IMG/VR virus record: IMGVR_UViG_3300028029_000004
Coordinates: 1-29,131 of that record
Source of the DNA: a virus
Strand: one strand, 5' to 3'
DNA: 29,131 nucleotides
Shown here: piece by piece, positions 3,065-29,131 of the stretch
Layout of the letters: every line of letters starts with the position of its first letter
How positions within the stretch are numbered: the first letter of the stretch is position 1
The notes under the pieces: model-generated
Told to the model about the DNA's origin: nothing
Database searches by the model: none
What the model saw: the letters and a program-made list of their open reading frames with translations, nothing else
Program-made: the position numbers and the translations under genes

Positions 3065-3101
3065 ACCGTAATGTATTCACGACAAGCTGGAGGAAGAAAT
3101 T

Positions 3102-3341
3102 ATGGCAAATGAAGAATTCCAGGAAAACGTAACCAAGAGGGAACCTGACAGGGGTAGCTGTACCGAGCTAAGCGCAAGGATAGATACAACCAGTTATGAC
3201 GACGAAGAGGTACTCATTATTTCAGACGGTCGGTTGTATGTTGGGCTGTTGTTCCCCGATATCGACATCCCGCCAGACATCCGCAAGAGGCTGGAAAAAA
3301 GAGAATCAGTGCGGGTTGACCTTGTCTGGAAGGATGAATGA
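3102..3341 (+). CDS. Hypothetical protein (79 aa)
   Basis: GGAGGAAG SD 6 nt upstream of ATG 3102. Clean ORF in the co-directional gene string. Confidence 0.55.
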   Translation: MANEEFQENVTKREPDRGSCTELSARIDTTSYDDEEVLIISDGRLYVGLLFPDIDIPPDIRKRLEKRESVRVDLVWKDE

Positions 3342-3454
3342 TGCGAGAATACTGGCACATGTTAAAAGACGTACTCGGGGTATGGGGGATAATCGCCTGT
3401 GCGGTTAGTATAGCGGTTATTGTAGGACAGATAATCTGGATACTCTTAAAGTGA
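3338..3454 (+). CDS. Micro-protein, 38 aa, single transmembrane helix (not in ORF track)
   Basis: ATG 3338 overlaps the stop of 3102-3341 (ATGA). Translation MMREYWHMLKDVLGVWGIIACAVSIAVIVGQIIWILLK. Stop TGA 3452-3454. Confidence 0.5.
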   Translation: MMREYWHMLKDVLGVWGIIACAVSIAVIVGQIIWILLK

Positions 3455-3528
3455 GTAGAAATGAGCAGGTTCTCATGGTAGGGTACGGATTATTATACGG
3501 CTGAGTGAGAATAAAATGTCAATACTTA

Positions 3529-3557
3529 TTGTACTGTCAAAATTATGACAGTGTAAT
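3529..3557 (+). promoter_or_regulatory. Candidate promoter TTGTAC-N17-TGTAAT. The 20-bp palindrome ACTGTCAaaattaTGACAGT (3533-3552) covers the spacer and overlaps both hexamers.
   Basis: Hexamers at 3529-3534 and 3552-3557. Perfect 7+7 inverted repeat at 3533-3539 / 3546-3552. Located 23 nt upstream of the small terminase start. Confidence 0.45.
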
Positions 3558-3579
3558 GTTCGGAATAGGAGGTTTAGTT

Positions 3580-5563: not shown

Positions 5564-5686
5564 TGGAGTATTTTAATATTCACAAACGGATATTCAATTA
5601 TCGTTCTACAACACGGGTATCCTGCATAGAGGGGGGTCAGCTTGAATAAACGGACAAAATTAAGATTGGTGGTTTCGGGACGTGCT

Positions 5687-5727
5687 ACTGTCAAATACTT
5701 GACACTTGATTTTTTTTTGACTATGAT
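5687..5727 (+). promoter_or_regulatory. Near-consensus sigma70 promoter TTGACA(5699-5704)-N17-TATGAT(5722-5727), overlapped by the operator-like site ACTGTCAaatactTGACACT (5687-5706)
   Basis: Hexamers read directly from the sequence. The spacer contains a T9 run (5710-5718). It lies in the 268-nt gap between the terminase stop and the portal start. Confidence 0.6.
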
Positions 5728-5831
5728 CAGATCAAATGAGAACGAGGGGTACATATTTGAAAACTCCATTACAGTTCTTTAGGACATATAGGCGCAACAA
5801 GGTCAAACGATTGGCTGCTGAGGTCTTACGT

Positions 5832-7439: not shown

Positions 7440-8626
7440 ATATCGAGAACTTATCGAAAGAAATAAAGGCAAAGTTGATAGACAAACAGCAAGTTGCTTT
7501 TGTAGAGGCGTACAATGAGACTGAGAGTAAGGGTGAATCCGAACCGGCATGCTTACGTAGCGGTTGGACGGCAGCCATCTCTATTAATAGCCGGGTTGTT
7601 CCTCATGCTTTTCTGTTTCGTCCCGGGAATTGGGATGCTGCTCAGGGTGACGGCAGGATTACAGAGACAATGGTAGAAGATGCTGTGTTTGCTATTAACC
7701 GTTGTGCAGAGCTTGGCGTGCCTATTGCTACAAAATACATGCATTCAGAGGATTATGAGGCCATTCCTGTTGGTATTACCAATAACGCAACAATTGAGGA
7801 TGACCACGTAGCATACGGAGACGTTTATATCTTACAGGATGCCAGGGCTGATTTAGATGGAAATGGCAGTAAGATTCTAGCCACCATTAATCAGATGGCA
7901 GATGCTTTATTAACTGACGGCATGAAGCTTTCAGTAGAGGCTCTTTACGATGTAAAGGTTCCTTCATATTATGGTAACAAGACAATTTCGCTTGAGCCTT
8001 CTGCAATGGCGATTCTGCCTGCAGGTGTAGCACCTGCGGTAACTAAGAAAATGATCGCTGGAAGAAACAATAGAGGGAGGCCGGTTGCCTTTCTCGCAAA
8101 CAAAAAAACCCTTGAAGGGGGTGGACGAATGACACTCGAAGAACTCATTAAACTTGTCGAAGGATTAATCCCAAGGATTGACGCCCTCGAACAGGGAATT
8201 GCAAAGAAAGAGGCAGATGTAGAGGGAGATGTTGCGGCTGATGTAACAGAGCTTGAGAAAATCAATGCTGAGTTGAAGGCCAAGTTAGATAAGATAGAGA
8301 AAGATAAACTGGAGGCTGAAGTTAACAGCCTCGAAAAGGAAATTGTTGATAAAATTGATGCTGACCAGAAAGAAAAACTGGAAGCAGCCATGAAGGAGAC
8401 AACCAATCTTTCTGAGAAGAAAGTAGTGCTGTCCAGGCTGAATGCCATAATTAAAGAGCCAGCCGACTCTGAGCGAAAGCTTAAAGCTGGTAGACAGACT
8501 AGTATCGACAAGGTGAGAACGATTGACAACGCTATTGTAAAGCGCATGGAAGAAACTGGTGAGTCTCGACTTGCCGCATCTCGCGCAATACGTAGGGAAA
8601 TGTCAGAATCGGAACTTGATATATAA
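7436..8626 (+). CDS. Scaffolding protein, possibly fused to a prohead protease domain
   Basis: ATG 7436 overlaps the portal stop (ATGA) and has a GGAGAG SD. The C-terminal ~170 aa are a Glu/Lys-rich coiled coil (ELEKINAELKAKLDKIEKDKLEAEVNSLEKEIVDKIDADQKEKLEAAMKE). Position is between portal and capsid genes. Confidence 0.5.
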   Translation: MNIENLSKEIKAKLIDKQQVAFVEAYNETESKGESEPACLRSGWTAAISINSRVVPHAFLFRPGNWDAAQGDGRITETMVEDAVFAINRCAELGVPIATKYMHSEDYEAIPVGITNNATIEDDHVAYGDVYILQDARADLDGNGSKILATINQMADALLTDGMKLSVEALYDVKVPSYYGNKTISLEPSAMAILPAGVAPAVTKKMIAGRNNRGRPVAFLANKKTLEGGGRMTLEELIKLVEGLIPRIDALEQGIAKKEADVEGDVAADVTELEKINAELKAKLDKIEKDKLEAEVNSLEKEIVDKIDADQKEKLEAAMKETTNLSEKKVVLSRLNAIIKEPADSERKLKAGRQTSIDKVRTIDNAIVKRMEETGESRLAASRAIRREMSESELDI

Positions 8627-24844: not shown

Positions 24845-25501
24845 ATGTCTGTCAACTTATCATTCAAGATCAATATAGGAATAATTCTCTCAGTTGTGGC
24901 TGTAATCTTCATATTCATTCTAAGGCCGTTTTCCTGCCATTCTAGCCCATCTAATAAAAACTGGCACGTACTACACTCAGGATTAAAGAATCTGTCTTAC
25001 GCACAGGCCGAGCCTATAAATTTAGCGAAATTACATGATTTTACTCCGGAGATTAAGGATAACACCATATCTACCTCTATCACTGAAGGAATATGGACGC
25101 CCGATTCTGTGTATACTCCAGAAGACACTCTGATTGTTACCGCGTCTGGTATTACCCTGGCTGACAACACCCATTGGACACGCATAACCATAGATGGTAA
25201 GCCCGTGACCGTATTAAAAGCCGAATACTACAGCAGGAACATTCAAAGACGCTGGATCGTACTGGTAGAAACCACTAATAATGCCGGTATAGGTGCCGGG
25301 ATAGGTTATAACCTGTTTTCGCTTGCCGGTATTGACGCCGTGTCTGCTGTTTCCATCTCAATTCGTGGCAACTGGATAGCTCCGGAGGTTAGAATACAGC
25401 AGAATATCTGGAGCGGAATAGCAATAGGGGCTGGTATAGGGTATAGGTTCGGGGATTCAGAGGGTATTCACTTATCTGCAGGAGTTAGCCTGGAGATTTA
25501 G
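24845..25501 (+). CDS. Membrane protein with an N-terminal transmembrane anchor and a C-terminal OMP-like Gly-rich beta region (218 aa). Candidate non-canonical spanin/disruptin.
   Basis: GAAGGTGG SD. Transmembrane segment INIGIILSVVAVIFIFIL. The C-terminal ~90 aa have alternating hydrophobic residues and repeated GIGAGIGY motifs (NAGIGAGIGYNLF, GIAIGAGIGYRFGD). It follows the endolysin directly. Confidence 0.6.
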   Translation: MSVNLSFKINIGIILSVVAVIFIFILRPFSCHSSPSNKNWHVLHSGLKNLSYAQAEPINLAKLHDFTPEIKDNTISTSITEGIWTPDSVYTPEDTLIVTASGITLADNTHWTRITIDGKPVTVLKAEYYSRNIQRRWIVLVETTNNAGIGAGIGYNLFSLAGIDAVSAVSISIRGNWIAPEVRIQQNIWSGIAIGAGIGYRFGDSEGIHLSAGVSLEI

Positions 25502-26006
25502 GAAAATGGTTCGTTCTGTAAGAATTAGAGCGTGTAAAATCCTTTCGACAGCCCATGTGTCCTGTAGAGATATTTACTGTCTCAACTTTCTTTCATTTAT
25601 CACATTGGACATTTCTTAAAAACAAAACATGTCCGTCCTCTCAAATAGGCTTGTGTTCCAAATACGTTTTCGAATCTCTCCGAGTTTTTGCAAAAGAGGC
25701 GTTGCCTAAAAATCAGAGAGTGAATGAGCTGAAAATATTACATGACACTGAAAGTACTTTTCGTGCAATCGGTAAAAACAGGCAAAAACAGCGTCGTAGA
25801 ATGGCTATACAAGGGCATCTATGAAGACGTGTAATATTATTGAAAAAGTGTAGCTACGTAAATATGAAAACGAGCAATTGAACCAATCCGAACTATTTAC
25901 ATGCTCTAATTTCTAAGAAATGTGTAATTGCCCGGAATTCAATAAATTATTCTGTAGAATTTCAAAGTTTACTGATCACGCGAATCCCTGTCGGAAAAGT
26001 TATGGA

Positions 26007-26079
26007 ATCTTGAAAAACGGGTGTAACTTTATTCTCGTTTTGAAAAAATCTAATATCTTGGAAAACGGCAGTAACTCTA
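26007..26079. repeat. Two 25-nt direct repeats ATCTTG(A/G)AAAACGG(GT/CA)GTAACT(T/C)TA with a 48-nt period
   Basis: Copies at 26007-26031 and 26055-26079, 21/25 identical. Embedded in a region full of GAAAA(A) words. Confidence 0.7.
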
Positions 26080-26130
26080 AACGCGAAAAAGATTGGAGAA
26101 CAGAATAACAGTAGACGGTGCATGGGGGTT

Positions 26131-26158
26131 TTGGGAGACTGACAAAACTTGATAGAAT
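26131..26158 (+). promoter_or_regulatory. Candidate extended -10 promoter TTGGGA-N16-TGaTAGAAT upstream of the tandem modules
   Basis: Hexamers at 26131-26136 and 26153-26158, with TG at 26150-26151. Confidence 0.35.
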
Positions 26159-26187
26159 ATTAAGTTTTCTGCTCTTACGTGTTCGTT

Positions 26188-26409
26188 TAGACAGATCCGA
26201 AAAGTTCTTAAAAGGGGGTATTTCTAATAGACCCATTCCCCCATTTCGGGGAGCGTGGGACGCAACAACTTAGGGGATTGCCACCTAGACAGATCCGAAA
26301 AGTTCTTAAAAGCGAGTATTCCAAATGTCCGTTTAACGGACTTTAGAAACTCTAACCCATTCGCCCGATTCGGCGAGCGTGAGACACAACAACTTAGAGA
26401 CCTTTTTTT
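26188..26409 (+). repeat. Two tandem composite modules (box A 27 nt + box B 42-nt hairpin). Candidate tandem structured ncRNAs or iterons. Ends in a T7 run.
   Basis: Box A TAGACAGATCCGAAAAGTTCTTAAAAG at 26188-26214 and 26286-26312 (27/27). Box B at 26232-26273 and 26356-26397 (36/42). Stem TTCCCC/GGGGAG in copy 1 versus TTCGCC/GGCGAG in copy 2 is a compensatory change. Closing helix CTCTAA/TTAGAG, then ACC and T7 at 26403-26409. Confidence 0.7.
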
Positions 26410-26424
26410 CAAATATAAATACAT

Positions 26425-26469
26425 AACCCCCAACGTGGGGGTTGACATTGGGGATAACCATGCTATGAT
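26425..26469 (+). promoter_or_regulatory. Near-consensus promoter TTGACA(26442-26447)-N16-TGcTATGAT(26464-26469), abutted by the 19-bp GC-rich inverted repeat AACCCCCAacgTGGGGGTT (26425-26443)
   Basis: Hexamers and the 8+8 inverted repeat were read directly. GGAGGTGAG SD and ATG 26494 lie downstream. Confidence 0.6.
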
Positions 26470-26493
26470 ACCCATAGAGATTGGAGGTGAGAC

Positions 26494-26742
26494 ATGAGTA
26501 GAGGAAGACATAGAAGCCATATTCAGTTGAAGAAGCTAGAGGAAGACTGGCTGTTGAGTCGAGTAGCTGCAGACGAGGAAGAAGAACTGTCCTTCAGTGC
26601 AGCGGTGCGAGAAATCCTGGTAACCCACCCAATATTCAGGGAAGTTCAAAGGCGGTTACAGGTAGATCCTGGGTTCAAAGAGGAATACGAGGTGCTGGTA
26701 GCTAAAGGCAGAGAGATTAGACGTGCTAACAAACGGAGGTAG
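26494..26742 (+). CDS. Ribbon-helix-helix (CopG/Arc-like) DNA-binding protein (putative early regulator)
   Basis: GGAGGTGAG SD. N-terminal pattern SHIQLKKLEEDWLLSRVAADEEEELSFSAAVREIL fits strand-helix-helix. It is the first gene after a strong promoter. Confidence 0.5.
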   Translation: MSRGRHRSHIQLKKLEEDWLLSRVAADEEEELSFSAAVREILVTHPIFREVQRRLQVDPGFKEEYEVLVAKGREIRRANKRR

Positions 26743-27343: not shown

Positions 27344-27703
27344 GTGGATCAGACATATATCAGCGGGCGCTTAGGGCGAGATGCTGAGTCAAAGGCTACT
27401 ACTGCAGGAGATATAACAAAGTTCTCGGTGGCTGTAGGATATGGCAAAAAGGACAACAGAAAGACTATGTGGTACGACGTAGTAACCTGGCACGGAACTG
27501 CCATAGCCTGCAAGGGGCTCAAGAAAGGCGACGCAGTAATAGTAGTGGGAAAACTGCGCATCAACGAATGGACAGACCGCGATGGCGTTAAAAGGCGCAC
27601 ATGGAGCCTGCAGGCAGACACGGTAGGGAAGGTGCTGTACGTAAAAGAGAGTAAATCGCAGGAAGAGAGCAGAGAATCAACTAATGATGACCCAGCATAC
27701 TGA
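27344..27703 (+). CDS. ssb: Single-stranded DNA-binding protein
   Basis: GGGAGGG SD before GTG 27344. OB-fold pattern ISGRLGRDAE....FSVAV.......TMWYDVVTWHGTAIACKGLKKGDAVIVVGKLRINEWTDRDGVKRRTWSLQADTV, with an acidic C-terminal tail. Confidence 0.8.
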   Translation: MDQTYISGRLGRDAESKATTAGDITKFSVAVGYGKKDNRKTMWYDVVTWHGTAIACKGLKKGDAVIVVGKLRINEWTDRDGVKRRTWSLQADTVGKVLYVKESKSQEESRESTNDDPAY

Positions 27704-28080: not shown

Positions 28081-28578
28081 ATGGATAAAATGGACCATAC
28101 GAGACCGGACATAAAGCAGATGAGGAAAGAGATCAACGATAATTTGCGGAAGCTTGAGGTATTGAACGGTAAAAGCCCGGGTACGTATTCACTGCCGGAT
28201 TCCGCACCGCATATAGTAGAGTACGGCGACGCAGTTCACTTTCATTCAGCGAATATCTCTGGGATCCTATTCGATATGCTAGGGCAAGAAGGGGGTGTAT
28301 ACGTTGCTAACGAGTCAGTTGTGCTGAAGAAGGGTAAAGACACCTGGTTGCACCTAAAAGGGAAGGCATTGACCTCCTGTAGCCTTGGAGACATCTCTGC
28401 TGATGGCATAGGACACCTCGTAAAGAAGGAAGTTCAGGATTTCAAGATTGATGAGCTGTCTGTAGGAGTGTCCATCCAGCAGCTTGTACCGCTTTTCACG
28501 CAGGCCCTGAGGGTGTTGGAAGGTGTGTCTGACCTGATCACAGACTATGAAGTTGTGCTGGACAAAAACCAAACTTGA
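28081..28578 (+). CDS. Hypothetical protein (165 aa)
   Basis: ORF follows the lipoprotein gene. ATG 28090 is an alternative start with better SD spacing. Confidence 0.5.
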   Translation: MDKMDHTRPDIKQMRKEINDNLRKLEVLNGKSPGTYSLPDSAPHIVEYGDAVHFHSANISGILFDMLGQEGGVYVANESVVLKKGKDTWLHLKGKALTSCSLGDISADGIGHLVKKEVQDFKIDELSVGVSIQQLVPLFTQALRVLEGVSDLITDYEVVLDKNQT

Positions 28579-28602
28579 CAGAGGGATTAAACCGACTATA
28601 AT
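28575..28602 (+). promoter_or_regulatory. Consensus sigma70 promoter TTGACA(28575-28580)-N16-TATAAT(28597-28602)
   Basis: Both hexamers match the consensus perfectly. The -35 overlaps the stop codon of the upstream gene. Predicted start near A28609. Confidence 0.65.
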
Positions 28603-28606
28603 TGTT

Positions 28607-28719
28607 TTAACAAAACAGGGAGAATACAGTGAATTTTAATAATCCGCCTTTTGGAAGAGTGACTTTGATGCAAACCGCATCGTCTCCCTGTTTGTTAACC
28701 AAGAGGCGGGTTTTTATTT
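28607..28719 (+). promoter_or_regulatory. Structured ~110-nt leader or small RNA with two long competing helices and a terminal U-tract
   Basis: Helix A: 28607-28623 with 28683-28698 (16 bp, one bulge). Helix B: 28644-28654 with 28699-28709 (11 bp including one G-U), followed by G+TTTTTATTT at 28710-28719. The order A-B-A'-B' with no linker between A' and B' makes the two full helices mutually exclusive. Confidence 0.55.
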
Positions 28720-28926
28720 ATGAAAGCAGGAATCATGACCAAGCAAGAGGCTGATAGGATTACCAACCGACAGATCGCTCAGTTACTTGATTCAATCGAG
28801 GACGTGTTCACGTTACCCGATATTGTTAAACAGCAAATTATCAAGTATATGCATTATCTGAAGGCTAATCTTATCGTAAATCAGGAAGGACTTACCAATG
28901 GAGAACATCACCAAGATTTGCGGTAA
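28720..28926 (+). CDS. Hypothetical protein (68 aa; 63 aa if started at ATG 28735)
   Basis: First ORF after the structured leader. ATG 28735 has the better SD (AGCAGGA). Its 3' end overlaps the HNH start by 29 nt. Confidence 0.5.
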   Translation: MKAGIMTKQEADRITNRQIAQLLDSIEDVFTLPDIVKQQIIKYMHYLKANLIVNQEGLTNGEHHQDLR

Positions 28927-29131
28927 ATGCGGAGTACTGAAGCCTGTTACCGAGTTTCACAAGAACAAAAGCACGACTGATGGGCTACATCATCAGTGTA
29001 AAACATGTAGGACTGAATATTATGCTGAGCATCGGGAGGAGATAATTGCTCGTAAAAGGGCTTATCGTTTCGAGCATAGGGAAGAGATACGAGCCCGCAA
29101 CAAAGCTTATCGCTCCAAACATAGGGAAGAG
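28898..29131 (+). CDS. HNH endonuclease, N-terminal part (continues at nt 1-329 through the terminal overlap)
   Basis: ATG 28898 with the frame open to the window end, so there is no stop and it is absent from the ORF track. Translation MENITKICGKCGVLKPVTEFHKNKSTTDGLHHQCKTCRTEYYAEHREEIIARKRAYRFEHREEIRARNKAYRSKHREE has an N-terminal CxxC...CxxC zinc finger followed by 15-aa YxxxHREE repeats. Confidence 0.8.
   Translation, partial: MENITKICGKCGVLKPVTEFHKNKSTTDGLHHQCKTCRTEYYAEHREEIIARKRAYRFEHREEIRARNKAYRSKHREE
29100..29131. repeat. Second copy of the terminal overlap (equals nt 1-32)
   Basis: 32/32 identity with the window start. Confidence 0.8.

Follow-up and report, generated by a model that had tools for sequence, protein, structure and literature searches.

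What does a phage genome of 29.1 kb hold in nearly a kilobase of DNA that bears no gene? The question is posed by the IMG/VR virus record IMGVR_UViG_3300028029_000004, of which positions 1 to 29,131 were analysed (this whole stretch of 29,131 nucleotides (nt) is hereafter the window), and in particular by a gene-free region of 992 nt, 25502-26493, which extends from the last late (lysis-region) gene to the first early gene. A first-pass annotation made from the letters alone had suggested that this gap might be a replication origin or a very large structured non-coding RNA. The reading put forward here, tentatively and in the knowledge that it may well prove wrong, is that the gap is a non-coding region of transcription control together with a leader, situated where the lysis genes end and the early genes restart. 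Its anatomy can be read directly from the DNA, and every functional step proposed below is what we infer from that anatomy. The region would accordingly seem best filed as an early-promoter and regulatory non-coding region that carries an unexplained duplicated hairpin element.

The gap opens after the stop codon (25501) of a gene for a 218-amino-acid (218-aa) protein and closes at the ATG (26494) of the next gene, which is preceded at a distance of 3 nt by the strong Shine-Dalgarno (SD) sequence GGAGGTGA (26483-26490). That these 992 nt hold no gene and form a non-coding region at the boundary of late and early genes, as had been proposed, was borne out by the gene list, the SD sequences, and the codon tests. 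A more complete gene list puts the next gaps in size at 172 nt (5564-5735), 141 nt (28579-28719), and 75 nt; of the values given earlier (268, 141, and 125 nt), that of 141 nt stands, the largest other gap becomes the one of 172 nt, and the gap of 268 nt is an artefact of the window ends, because the genome is circular and an HNH gene runs across the window junction. An SD sequence of at least five nt is present at most ATG-initiated genes of the phage and at no start codon in the gap, in agreement with the original remark that the open reading frames (ORFs) listed there lack one. The codon log-odds of the 89-aa and 62-aa ORFs are both 0.04 bits per codon, compared with a mean of 0.26 for trusted genes and approximately -0.10 +/- 0.13 for opposite-strand ORFs that are not genes. 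No Pfam or PHROG match was obtained for the gap ORFs or for the six full-frame translations, and on that six-frame basis the gap is without recognisable pseudogene remnants. Judged by these measures, the gap ORFs appear to possess neither a ribosome-binding site, nor gene-like codon usage, nor a homologue. The peptide FKNFSDLS, which had been noticed in two minus-strand ORFs and ascribed to a DNA repeat, is indeed present and stems from such a repeat; inspection of the translations revealed that the ORFs crossing the two units of this duplication read them in different frames, as is expected of non-coding repeats.

The evidence that carries the proposed regulatory reading begins with two predicted promoters on the plus strand. 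When matches to the sigma-70 hexamers were considered at spacings of 16-18 nt, the stronger of the two, P_early (26442-26469, plus strand, TTGACA-16-TGcTATGAT), was found to match 11 of the 12 hexamer positions with an extended -10 box, and it stands 24 nt before the first early gene. The second, P2 (26123-26158, plus strand), lies 311 nt further upstream and consists of the 8-mer TGGGGGTT (26123-26130) followed by TTGGGA-16-TGaTAGAAT (26131-26158), that is, a -35 box matching at four of six positions and, again, a TG-extended -10 box (9/12 in all), with a predicted transcription start at about 26164. Only three sigma-70 matches of at least 11/12 occur in the whole genome (5699, 26442, and 28575); given that all three are intergenic and on the plus strand, the consensus of the host RNA polymerase is informative in this genome. 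The rare 8-mer TGGGGGTT itself occurs four times in the genome against an expectation of 0.77, and the three copies in the gap each touch a -35 box, a single one at P2 and two in inverted orientation at P_early. The latter two copies make up the palindrome or hairpin AACCCCCAACGTGGGGGTT (26425-26443), which overlaps the -35 box of P_early and is regarded as a putative operator; read on the minus strand, it resembles a terminator hairpin with a U-rich tail. Further sequence features around the promoters include an AT-rich palindrome, AAAACTTGATA/TATTAAGTTTT (26144-26168), which covers both the -10 box and the start site of P2, and a run of seven T's (26403-26409) at the head of an AT-rich block (26403-26424). 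This T-run block had been listed at the outset, as had short palindromes in the region, of which several were found as weaker features.

Between the two promoters lies the second line of evidence, a tandem duplication. The gap had been called repeat-rich, with two repeat families; the repeats are real, and there are fewer of them than that term implies, the only two significant families being D2, whose 41-nt copies are 90% identical (E 7e-12), and D1, whose 43-nt copies are 86% identical (E 3e-10). The two families jointly constitute one duplication with units of 86 and 112 nt. Unit A (26188-26273) comprises a D2 box (26188-26228) and D1 (26231-26273, with the stem 26237-26241/26248-26252), and unit B (26286-26397) comprises a D2 box (26286-26326), a 28-nt insert (26327-26354), and D1 (26355-26397, with the stem 26361-26365/26372-26376). 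The insert of unit B and its flanks fold as an extra hairpin (26314-26352, E 0.003), and no further copy of either unit exists in the genome. Two details of the units stand out. The first 27 nt of D2 are invariant between them at about 12% divergence elsewhere, and our own arithmetic puts the probability of 27 consecutive identical bases at that divergence at about 0.03. The 5-bp hairpin of D1 has C-G as its third pair in unit A (26239/26250), where unit B has G-C (26363/26374), a compensatory change for which we estimate a chance of approximately 0.03-0.05.

Taken together, these elements can be arranged into a scheme in which TGGGGGTT would be an operator that allows an early protein to switch off or modulate the two promoters. 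This operator-binding protein would probably be one of the two small proteins of DNA-binding type encoded just downstream. The first of these, an 82-aa protein (26494-26742), had been given the label 'RHH', which could not be verified, since sequence searches of Pfam, PHROG, and the PDB returned no match; its single-sequence AlphaFold model is all-helical but of low confidence, with a mean predicted local distance difference test score (pLDDT) of 63, and did not settle the fold. Units A and B would be transcribed from P2 within a leader of about 330 nt belonging to the early operon, because no intrinsic terminator was found on the plus strand between P2 and the ATG at 26494. The 27-nt invariant box of each unit may then be a protein-binding site, and the D1 hairpin either a cis-acting RNA element (for processing, stability, or antitermination) or an element acting as DNA. 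The A-tract DNA further to the left might provide bent or factor-binding DNA upstream of the promoters as well as the untranslated tail of the late transcript.

Several known systems bear partial likeness to this arrangement. The left end of phage T7 carries the tandem host-polymerase promoters A1-A3, and the gap resembles early leaders of the T7 type in that about 1 kb without genes directly precedes the first early gene, more than one host-type promoter is found on the same strand, and repeated modules recur some 100-125 nt apart. It differs from them in showing no evidence of genome ends and in that the duplicated units themselves are without promoter-like hexamers (sigma-54-like and other promoter types were likewise not seen in the units by eye); in addition, no RNA polymerase gene was found among the annotated genes of this phage. 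A counterpart for the putative operator may be the Pant promoter of phage P22, which is autoregulated through a palindromic operator by Arc, a small repressor encoded by the first gene of the operon. Here, too, a strong promoter has its -35 box overlapped by a palindrome, and the first gene encodes a basic protein of 82 aa, followed by a winged helix-turn-helix (HTH) protein, although the operator role in the present case is predicted from sequence and the same 8-mer stands beside a second promoter 311 nt upstream. As for the leader, lambda nut and HK022 put are cis-acting leader RNA elements for processive antitermination, which the duplicated units recall in being hairpin elements just downstream of a promoter whose two divergent copies keep their pairing, with a boxA-like word, GCTCTTA, 7 nt after the predicted P2 start. 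This word, however, occurs at chance frequency (five observed, 4.3 expected) and has no boxB-like hairpin beside it, both copies follow each other within a single leader and do not belong to two different operons, and the gap contains no identified terminator for them to override.

A number of observations weigh against the proposed scheme and keep it tentative. The hexamers of P2 match at only 9 of 12 positions, a score about as frequent in the genome as in shuffled sequence, and a terminator for the late operon was not found. Roughly 600 nt of the gap (25502-26120) receive only a vague role in the model, and support from conservation and covariation is limited to the two copies of the unit within this one genome. 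Finally, folding the units to a consensus yields -18.1 kcal/mol on the minus strand and a less stable -9.35 kcal/mol on the plus strand, and three one-sided changes are compatible with G-U pairing on the minus strand only, which fits poorly with a leader RNA read from the plus strand. Coming from two sequences, this strand preference is weak evidence, and it allows for a function on the minus strand or at the level of DNA.

The minus-strand fold is multi-stemmed, with a closing stem and three hairpins, and it is the point of departure for another explanation, namely that units A and B, alone or with their flanks, specify a discrete trans-acting non-coding RNA (ncRNA), for instance a regulatory small RNA or a decoy or anti-defence RNA, possibly from the minus strand. 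This is rather unlikely in our judgement. The compensatory pair in D1 and the three G-U-compatible changes would speak for it, and unit B is the sole locally stable stretch of the gap, with a folding z of about -2.5 for 100-nt windows; a terminator-like hairpin with a U-rich tail (-17.4 kcal/mol) is also present on the minus strand at 26463-26421. No credible minus-strand promoter was found in or near the repeat units, the plus strand has no terminator after them, and the structural evidence is thin, being drawn from the same two copies. Pattern scans of IMG/VR with the DNA of D1 and D2 recovered no copy, and a covariance model built from the two units was without a match when run against phage loci, related and unrelated, that total 0.73 Mb. 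The loci fetched from metagenomes likewise contain no copy of D1, D2, or the units.

More specifically, units A and B could be two copies of a structured RNA module new to phages, some 90-110 nt long, made up of a closing stem, two conserved hairpins, and one variable arm, and acting as a leader for processive antitermination or as a decoy in trans. We consider such a module improbable; were it to exist, antitermination would cover the whole of the one-directional genome, and the target of the decoy variant would be a host factor or a defence system. A solitary CRISPR-repeat-like RNA or mini-array was also considered, as D1 on the minus strand weakly resembles the Rfam family CRISPR-DR35, but the match scores 19.1 bits against a gathering threshold of 35 (E 1.2), and the two copies of D1 lie 124 nt apart, a spacing that does not suit a CRISPR array. 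In a scan of 185,579 species genomes, the D1 pattern was met once, within a protein-coding gene and not in an array. This match (35 nt, 89% identical to D1 of unit B) lies at 1008-1042 of a metagenome-assembled genome contig of Candidatus Limnocylindria (L102, DATHKK010000787.1), inside an unrelated bacterial gene of 1155 aa with 60% G+C. Nine of the 11 bases upstream of the matched pattern also agree, and the stretch was nevertheless taken as a chance match and rejected as a true copy.

Could the gap as a whole be one of the very large ornate RNAs known from phages, as had been suggested at first? In size (about 1 kb), non-coding nature, and phage setting it is comparable to GOLLD, ROOL, and HEARO. 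The Rfam models gave no support to this proposal: Rfam 15 at gathering thresholds had no match in the whole window, and a search of 25300-26700 on both strands with permissive filters, reporting matches up to E 10, returned only KRAS_3UTR, CRISPR-DR35, and TCL6_1, all far below their thresholds, with none to the large-RNA models. Folding, too, is close to background, with whole-gap z scores relative to shuffles of -1.85 (plus strand) and -2.19 (minus strand) over the 992 nt. Outside unit B the 100-nt windows lie mostly between -1 and +1, and those around 25915-26140 are, if anything, less structured than shuffled sequence. A search for tRNA and tmRNA genes found none. The predicted structure of the gap is thus weak, and no exceptional structure of the kind expected from a large RNA was found.

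The other initial proposal was that of a replication origin, in which iterons and an AT-rich unwinding element in the gap would serve the SSB, initiator, and helicase encoded nearby. There are grounds for raising it. The gap lies upstream of the replication module, it contains direct repeats, and of the three 100-nt windows with the highest AT content genome-wide, two fall within it (25830, 72% AT; 25995, 69% AT). These windows adjoin no iteron array, however, and the repeat families of the gap amount to two clear copies each at spacings of 48, 98, and 124 nt, without the phased, multi-copy iterons that an origin of this type would display. DnaA boxes occur at chance frequency and form no cluster in the gap, and GC skew stays positive throughout, with no sign change in the gap or elsewhere in the genome.

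A better candidate for the origin exists inside the O-like initiator gene (326-1111, 261 aa), whose start lies beyond the circular junction, 2.9 kb downstream of the gap. The origin of lambda has its iterons inside the initiator gene O, and the initiator gene of the present phage carries the best tandem repeat of the genome, an 11-nt array of TGTTGCAAAGA in 3.2 copies with 95% matches (529-563), followed by a 10-nt purine-rich array in 3.6 copies (678-713) and a 12-nt pair (723-745), so that a lambda-type signature is suggested at 529-745. The same layout with different repeat sequences was observed in the gene directly upstream of DnaB in two relatives, L004 (DnaB 53% identical) and L006 (DnaB 39% identical); in the former, an 11-nt array of 2.7 copies precedes ATAAGA in 5.8 copies (2130-2208), and in the latter, an 11-nt array of 2.6 copies precedes TAAGGA in eight (334-362 and 674-721). 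The gap thus shares with the iteron origins of lambda and SPP1 its AT-rich DNA and direct repeats near replication genes, and differs from them in that the phased arrays are located in the O-like gene. In SPP1, oriL lies inside gene 38 and a second, intergenic origin, oriR, carries the same repeats (PMC6316719), which offers a precedent for an additional site in the gap. Even with as many as two mismatches allowed, the initiator iteron GTTGCAAAGATG is absent from the gap, and a second site of the oriR type is consequently not supported. A further precedent is provided by phages of Propionibacterium (Cutibacterium) acnes, in which a non-coding region of more than 1 kb was proposed as the origin on the basis of a switch in the sign of GC skew (PMC3448167). 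That region resembles the gap in being about 1 kb long, gene-free, low in G+C, and marked by low-complexity runs, and in lying near one end of the gene map of a siphovirus genome of about 29 kb; the skew switch has no counterpart here, the genome organisation of those phages is different, and they have no sequence similarity to the gap. With the arrays placed in the initiator gene as in lambda O and SPP1 oriL, and likewise in both relatives, an origin in the gap is not supported and has to be considered very improbable.

A lesson for annotation may be drawn at this point: a gene-free, AT-rich, repeat-bearing block of 1 kb beside replication genes should not be taken by default for an origin or a giant RNA, because here the origin signature lies elsewhere and both the RNA models and the folding statistics were negative. 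Were the regulatory reading preferred here correct, the region would act as the control hub of a phage whose lineage has hardly any sequenced relatives, and the layout would be a compact one, with a pair of tandem promoters that have an operator word in common, a leader element present in duplicate, and the origin within the initiator gene. Its interest would be modest unless expression data were to reveal the duplicated element as a functional RNA.

The position of the gap on the gene map invites yet another explanation, according to which it holds the physical ends of the genome, as a direct terminal repeat or a cos site, together with signals for packaging or end processing. The map of T7-like phages starts at the left end with non-coding DNA and early promoters. 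In the present genome, the plus strand is the strand of every credible gene, the map ends and restarts at the gap, the gap is non-coding, AT-rich, and repeat-bearing, and a terminal repeat collapsed during assembly would yield a circular sequence. The genome is complete and circular, at 29.1 kb, with the first and last 32 nt of the window identical, and two further assemblies (ENA ERZ27262693 k141_732163 and Logan SRR8439058) cross the window ends and match the window at 100%. All three independent assemblies pass through the gap, and their contigs end elsewhere. Moreover, the terminase genes are 7 kb away, and most of the characterised distant relatives of the terminase that were examined carry its gene about 1-2.5 kb from the end of the record, from which packaging signals would be expected near the small-terminase gene (terS), at about 3.5 kb, where a palindrome-bearing non-coding spot just precedes the putative terS. 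Genome ends in the gap are, on these grounds, quite improbable. The spot itself, at approximately 3456-3560 in non-coding DNA and the start of the putative terS, contains the palindrome CTGTCA-AAATTA-TGACAG and repeated TGTCAA words and is a possible candidate for a pac or cos site.

It remains to consider the left part of the gap, some 600 nt of AT-rich DNA that has a few short repeated motifs and folds no better than shuffles. The first-pass count of at least seven GAAAA words between 25994 and 26300 was confirmed, with seven in 25994-26301, and the word is enriched, the gap holding 11 of the 51 occurrences in the genome (Poisson P ~3e-7). A-tract density in this left part is the highest of the genome, and the eight 300-nt windows that are richest in A/T tracts all fall in the gap. 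Two unstructured direct repeats of 38 nt, rich in GAAAA and A-tracts and 74% identical, occupy 25994-26079, starting at 25994 and 26042 (48 nt apart), and each holds a TCTTG(A/G)AAAACGG..GTAAC core. High helical phasing of A-tracts was noted at 26161-26310; it arises from four to five tracts of the duplication and was not relied on. Further to the left, a 16-nt inverted repeat (25523-25538/25896-25911, 15/16 matches, E 0.04) brackets a segment of 389 nt (25523-25911) that contains the unsupported 89-aa ORF (25555-25824) and the AT-rich stretch near 25830, and this inverted repeat could represent a miniature mobile element or long-range pairing.

Such features have to be weighed for the explanation that most of the gap, and 25502-26120 especially, is decaying or neutral DNA, left by a lost lysogeny or accessory module or by a mobile element, perhaps with an orphan 89-aa gene. 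Temperate siphoviruses carry their lysogeny module at this map position, no integrase was found among the annotated genes of the phage, and the G+C content of the gap is lower than that of the genome (36-41% vs about 45%), all of which would agree with decay, as would the bracketing inverted repeat. The 89-aa ORF is predicted by one gene caller, and its codon score falls between those of non-genes and genes, so it may be an orphan gene as a residual possibility; apart from its lack of an SD sequence, a HMMER search of 1.84 billion representative proteins returned only the ORF itself and two long repetitive proteins, none of them a real homologue. Protein-family remnants are absent from all six frames, the bracketed segment (sought as the inverted-repeat pair) has no second copy in IMG/VR, and useless DNA should be prone to loss from so small and compact a genome. 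The region is, moreover, identical in three samples. Decay is an unlikely account overall, albeit one with some chance of applying, and transcription control is the reading retained for the gap.

Comparative evidence on any of these readings is scarce, as the phage belongs to a very isolated lineage almost without sequenced relatives. The gap is 100% identical across all three assemblies and hence offers no variation to analyse, and its DNA, like the portal, has no match among GenBank phages (nor, in the case of the gap, among plasmids). Identity of the terminase to GenBank phages does not exceed 30%, DnaB reaches no more than 53% identity to any of 5.8 billion proteins, and the 218-aa protein of the last late gene (24845-25501), which has a hydrophobic N-terminal stretch, matched only itself in that same set. 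Scans of IMG/VR with this 218-aa protein, the endolysin, SSB, and an SSB alignment produced no close relative, and a metagenome scan with a DnaB alignment recovered only non-syntenic loci with 26-42% identity. Besides L004 and L006, the relatives found comprise L005, a syntenic contig of 24 kb likewise recognised by its DnaB, and L087, whose SSB is 62% identical (BLASTP) and whose HTH protein is about 70% identical in the best tblastx segment; the contigs of all four end short of the late/early junction. With L090 (ERZ27262693 k141_716705), a phage contig of the same sample to which it is otherwise unrelated, the phage has only an exchanged SSB module in common. The shared parts are the SSB gene (27345-27648, 94% DNA identity) and a small-gene segment (3096-3343, 88%), corresponding to 1868-2171 and 7452-8172 of that contig, and they point to a recent exchange of modules.

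The phage is siphovirus-like with a one-directional gene map. From the gap onwards the early part encodes the 82-aa basic protein, the winged-HTH protein (PF14090), SSB, several orphan genes, and an HNH endonuclease, and the replication part the O-like initiator (PHROG 678, E 4.5e-16) followed by the DnaB helicase. The late part runs through the terminase, a Mu-type portal, the major head protein, the tape measure, and tail genes, and the map closes with an M15 endolysin and the 218-aa orphan protein before the gap is reached again. The HNH endonuclease gene (PHROG 2340, E 4e-34) extends from about 28898 across the circular junction and contains some four to five tandem copies of a 45-nt repeat (29015-29131 into 1-122) that encode a 15-residue 'AYRxEHREE' motif, and it is within this array that the window was linearised. 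Upstream of it, in 28575-28719, a perfect sigma-70 promoter at 28575 (TTGACA-16-TATAAT, 12/12) is followed by a 118-nt leader, in which a hairpin (28672-28713) and a U-run end right at the ATG at 28720; this leader is a possible attenuator or target of antitermination.

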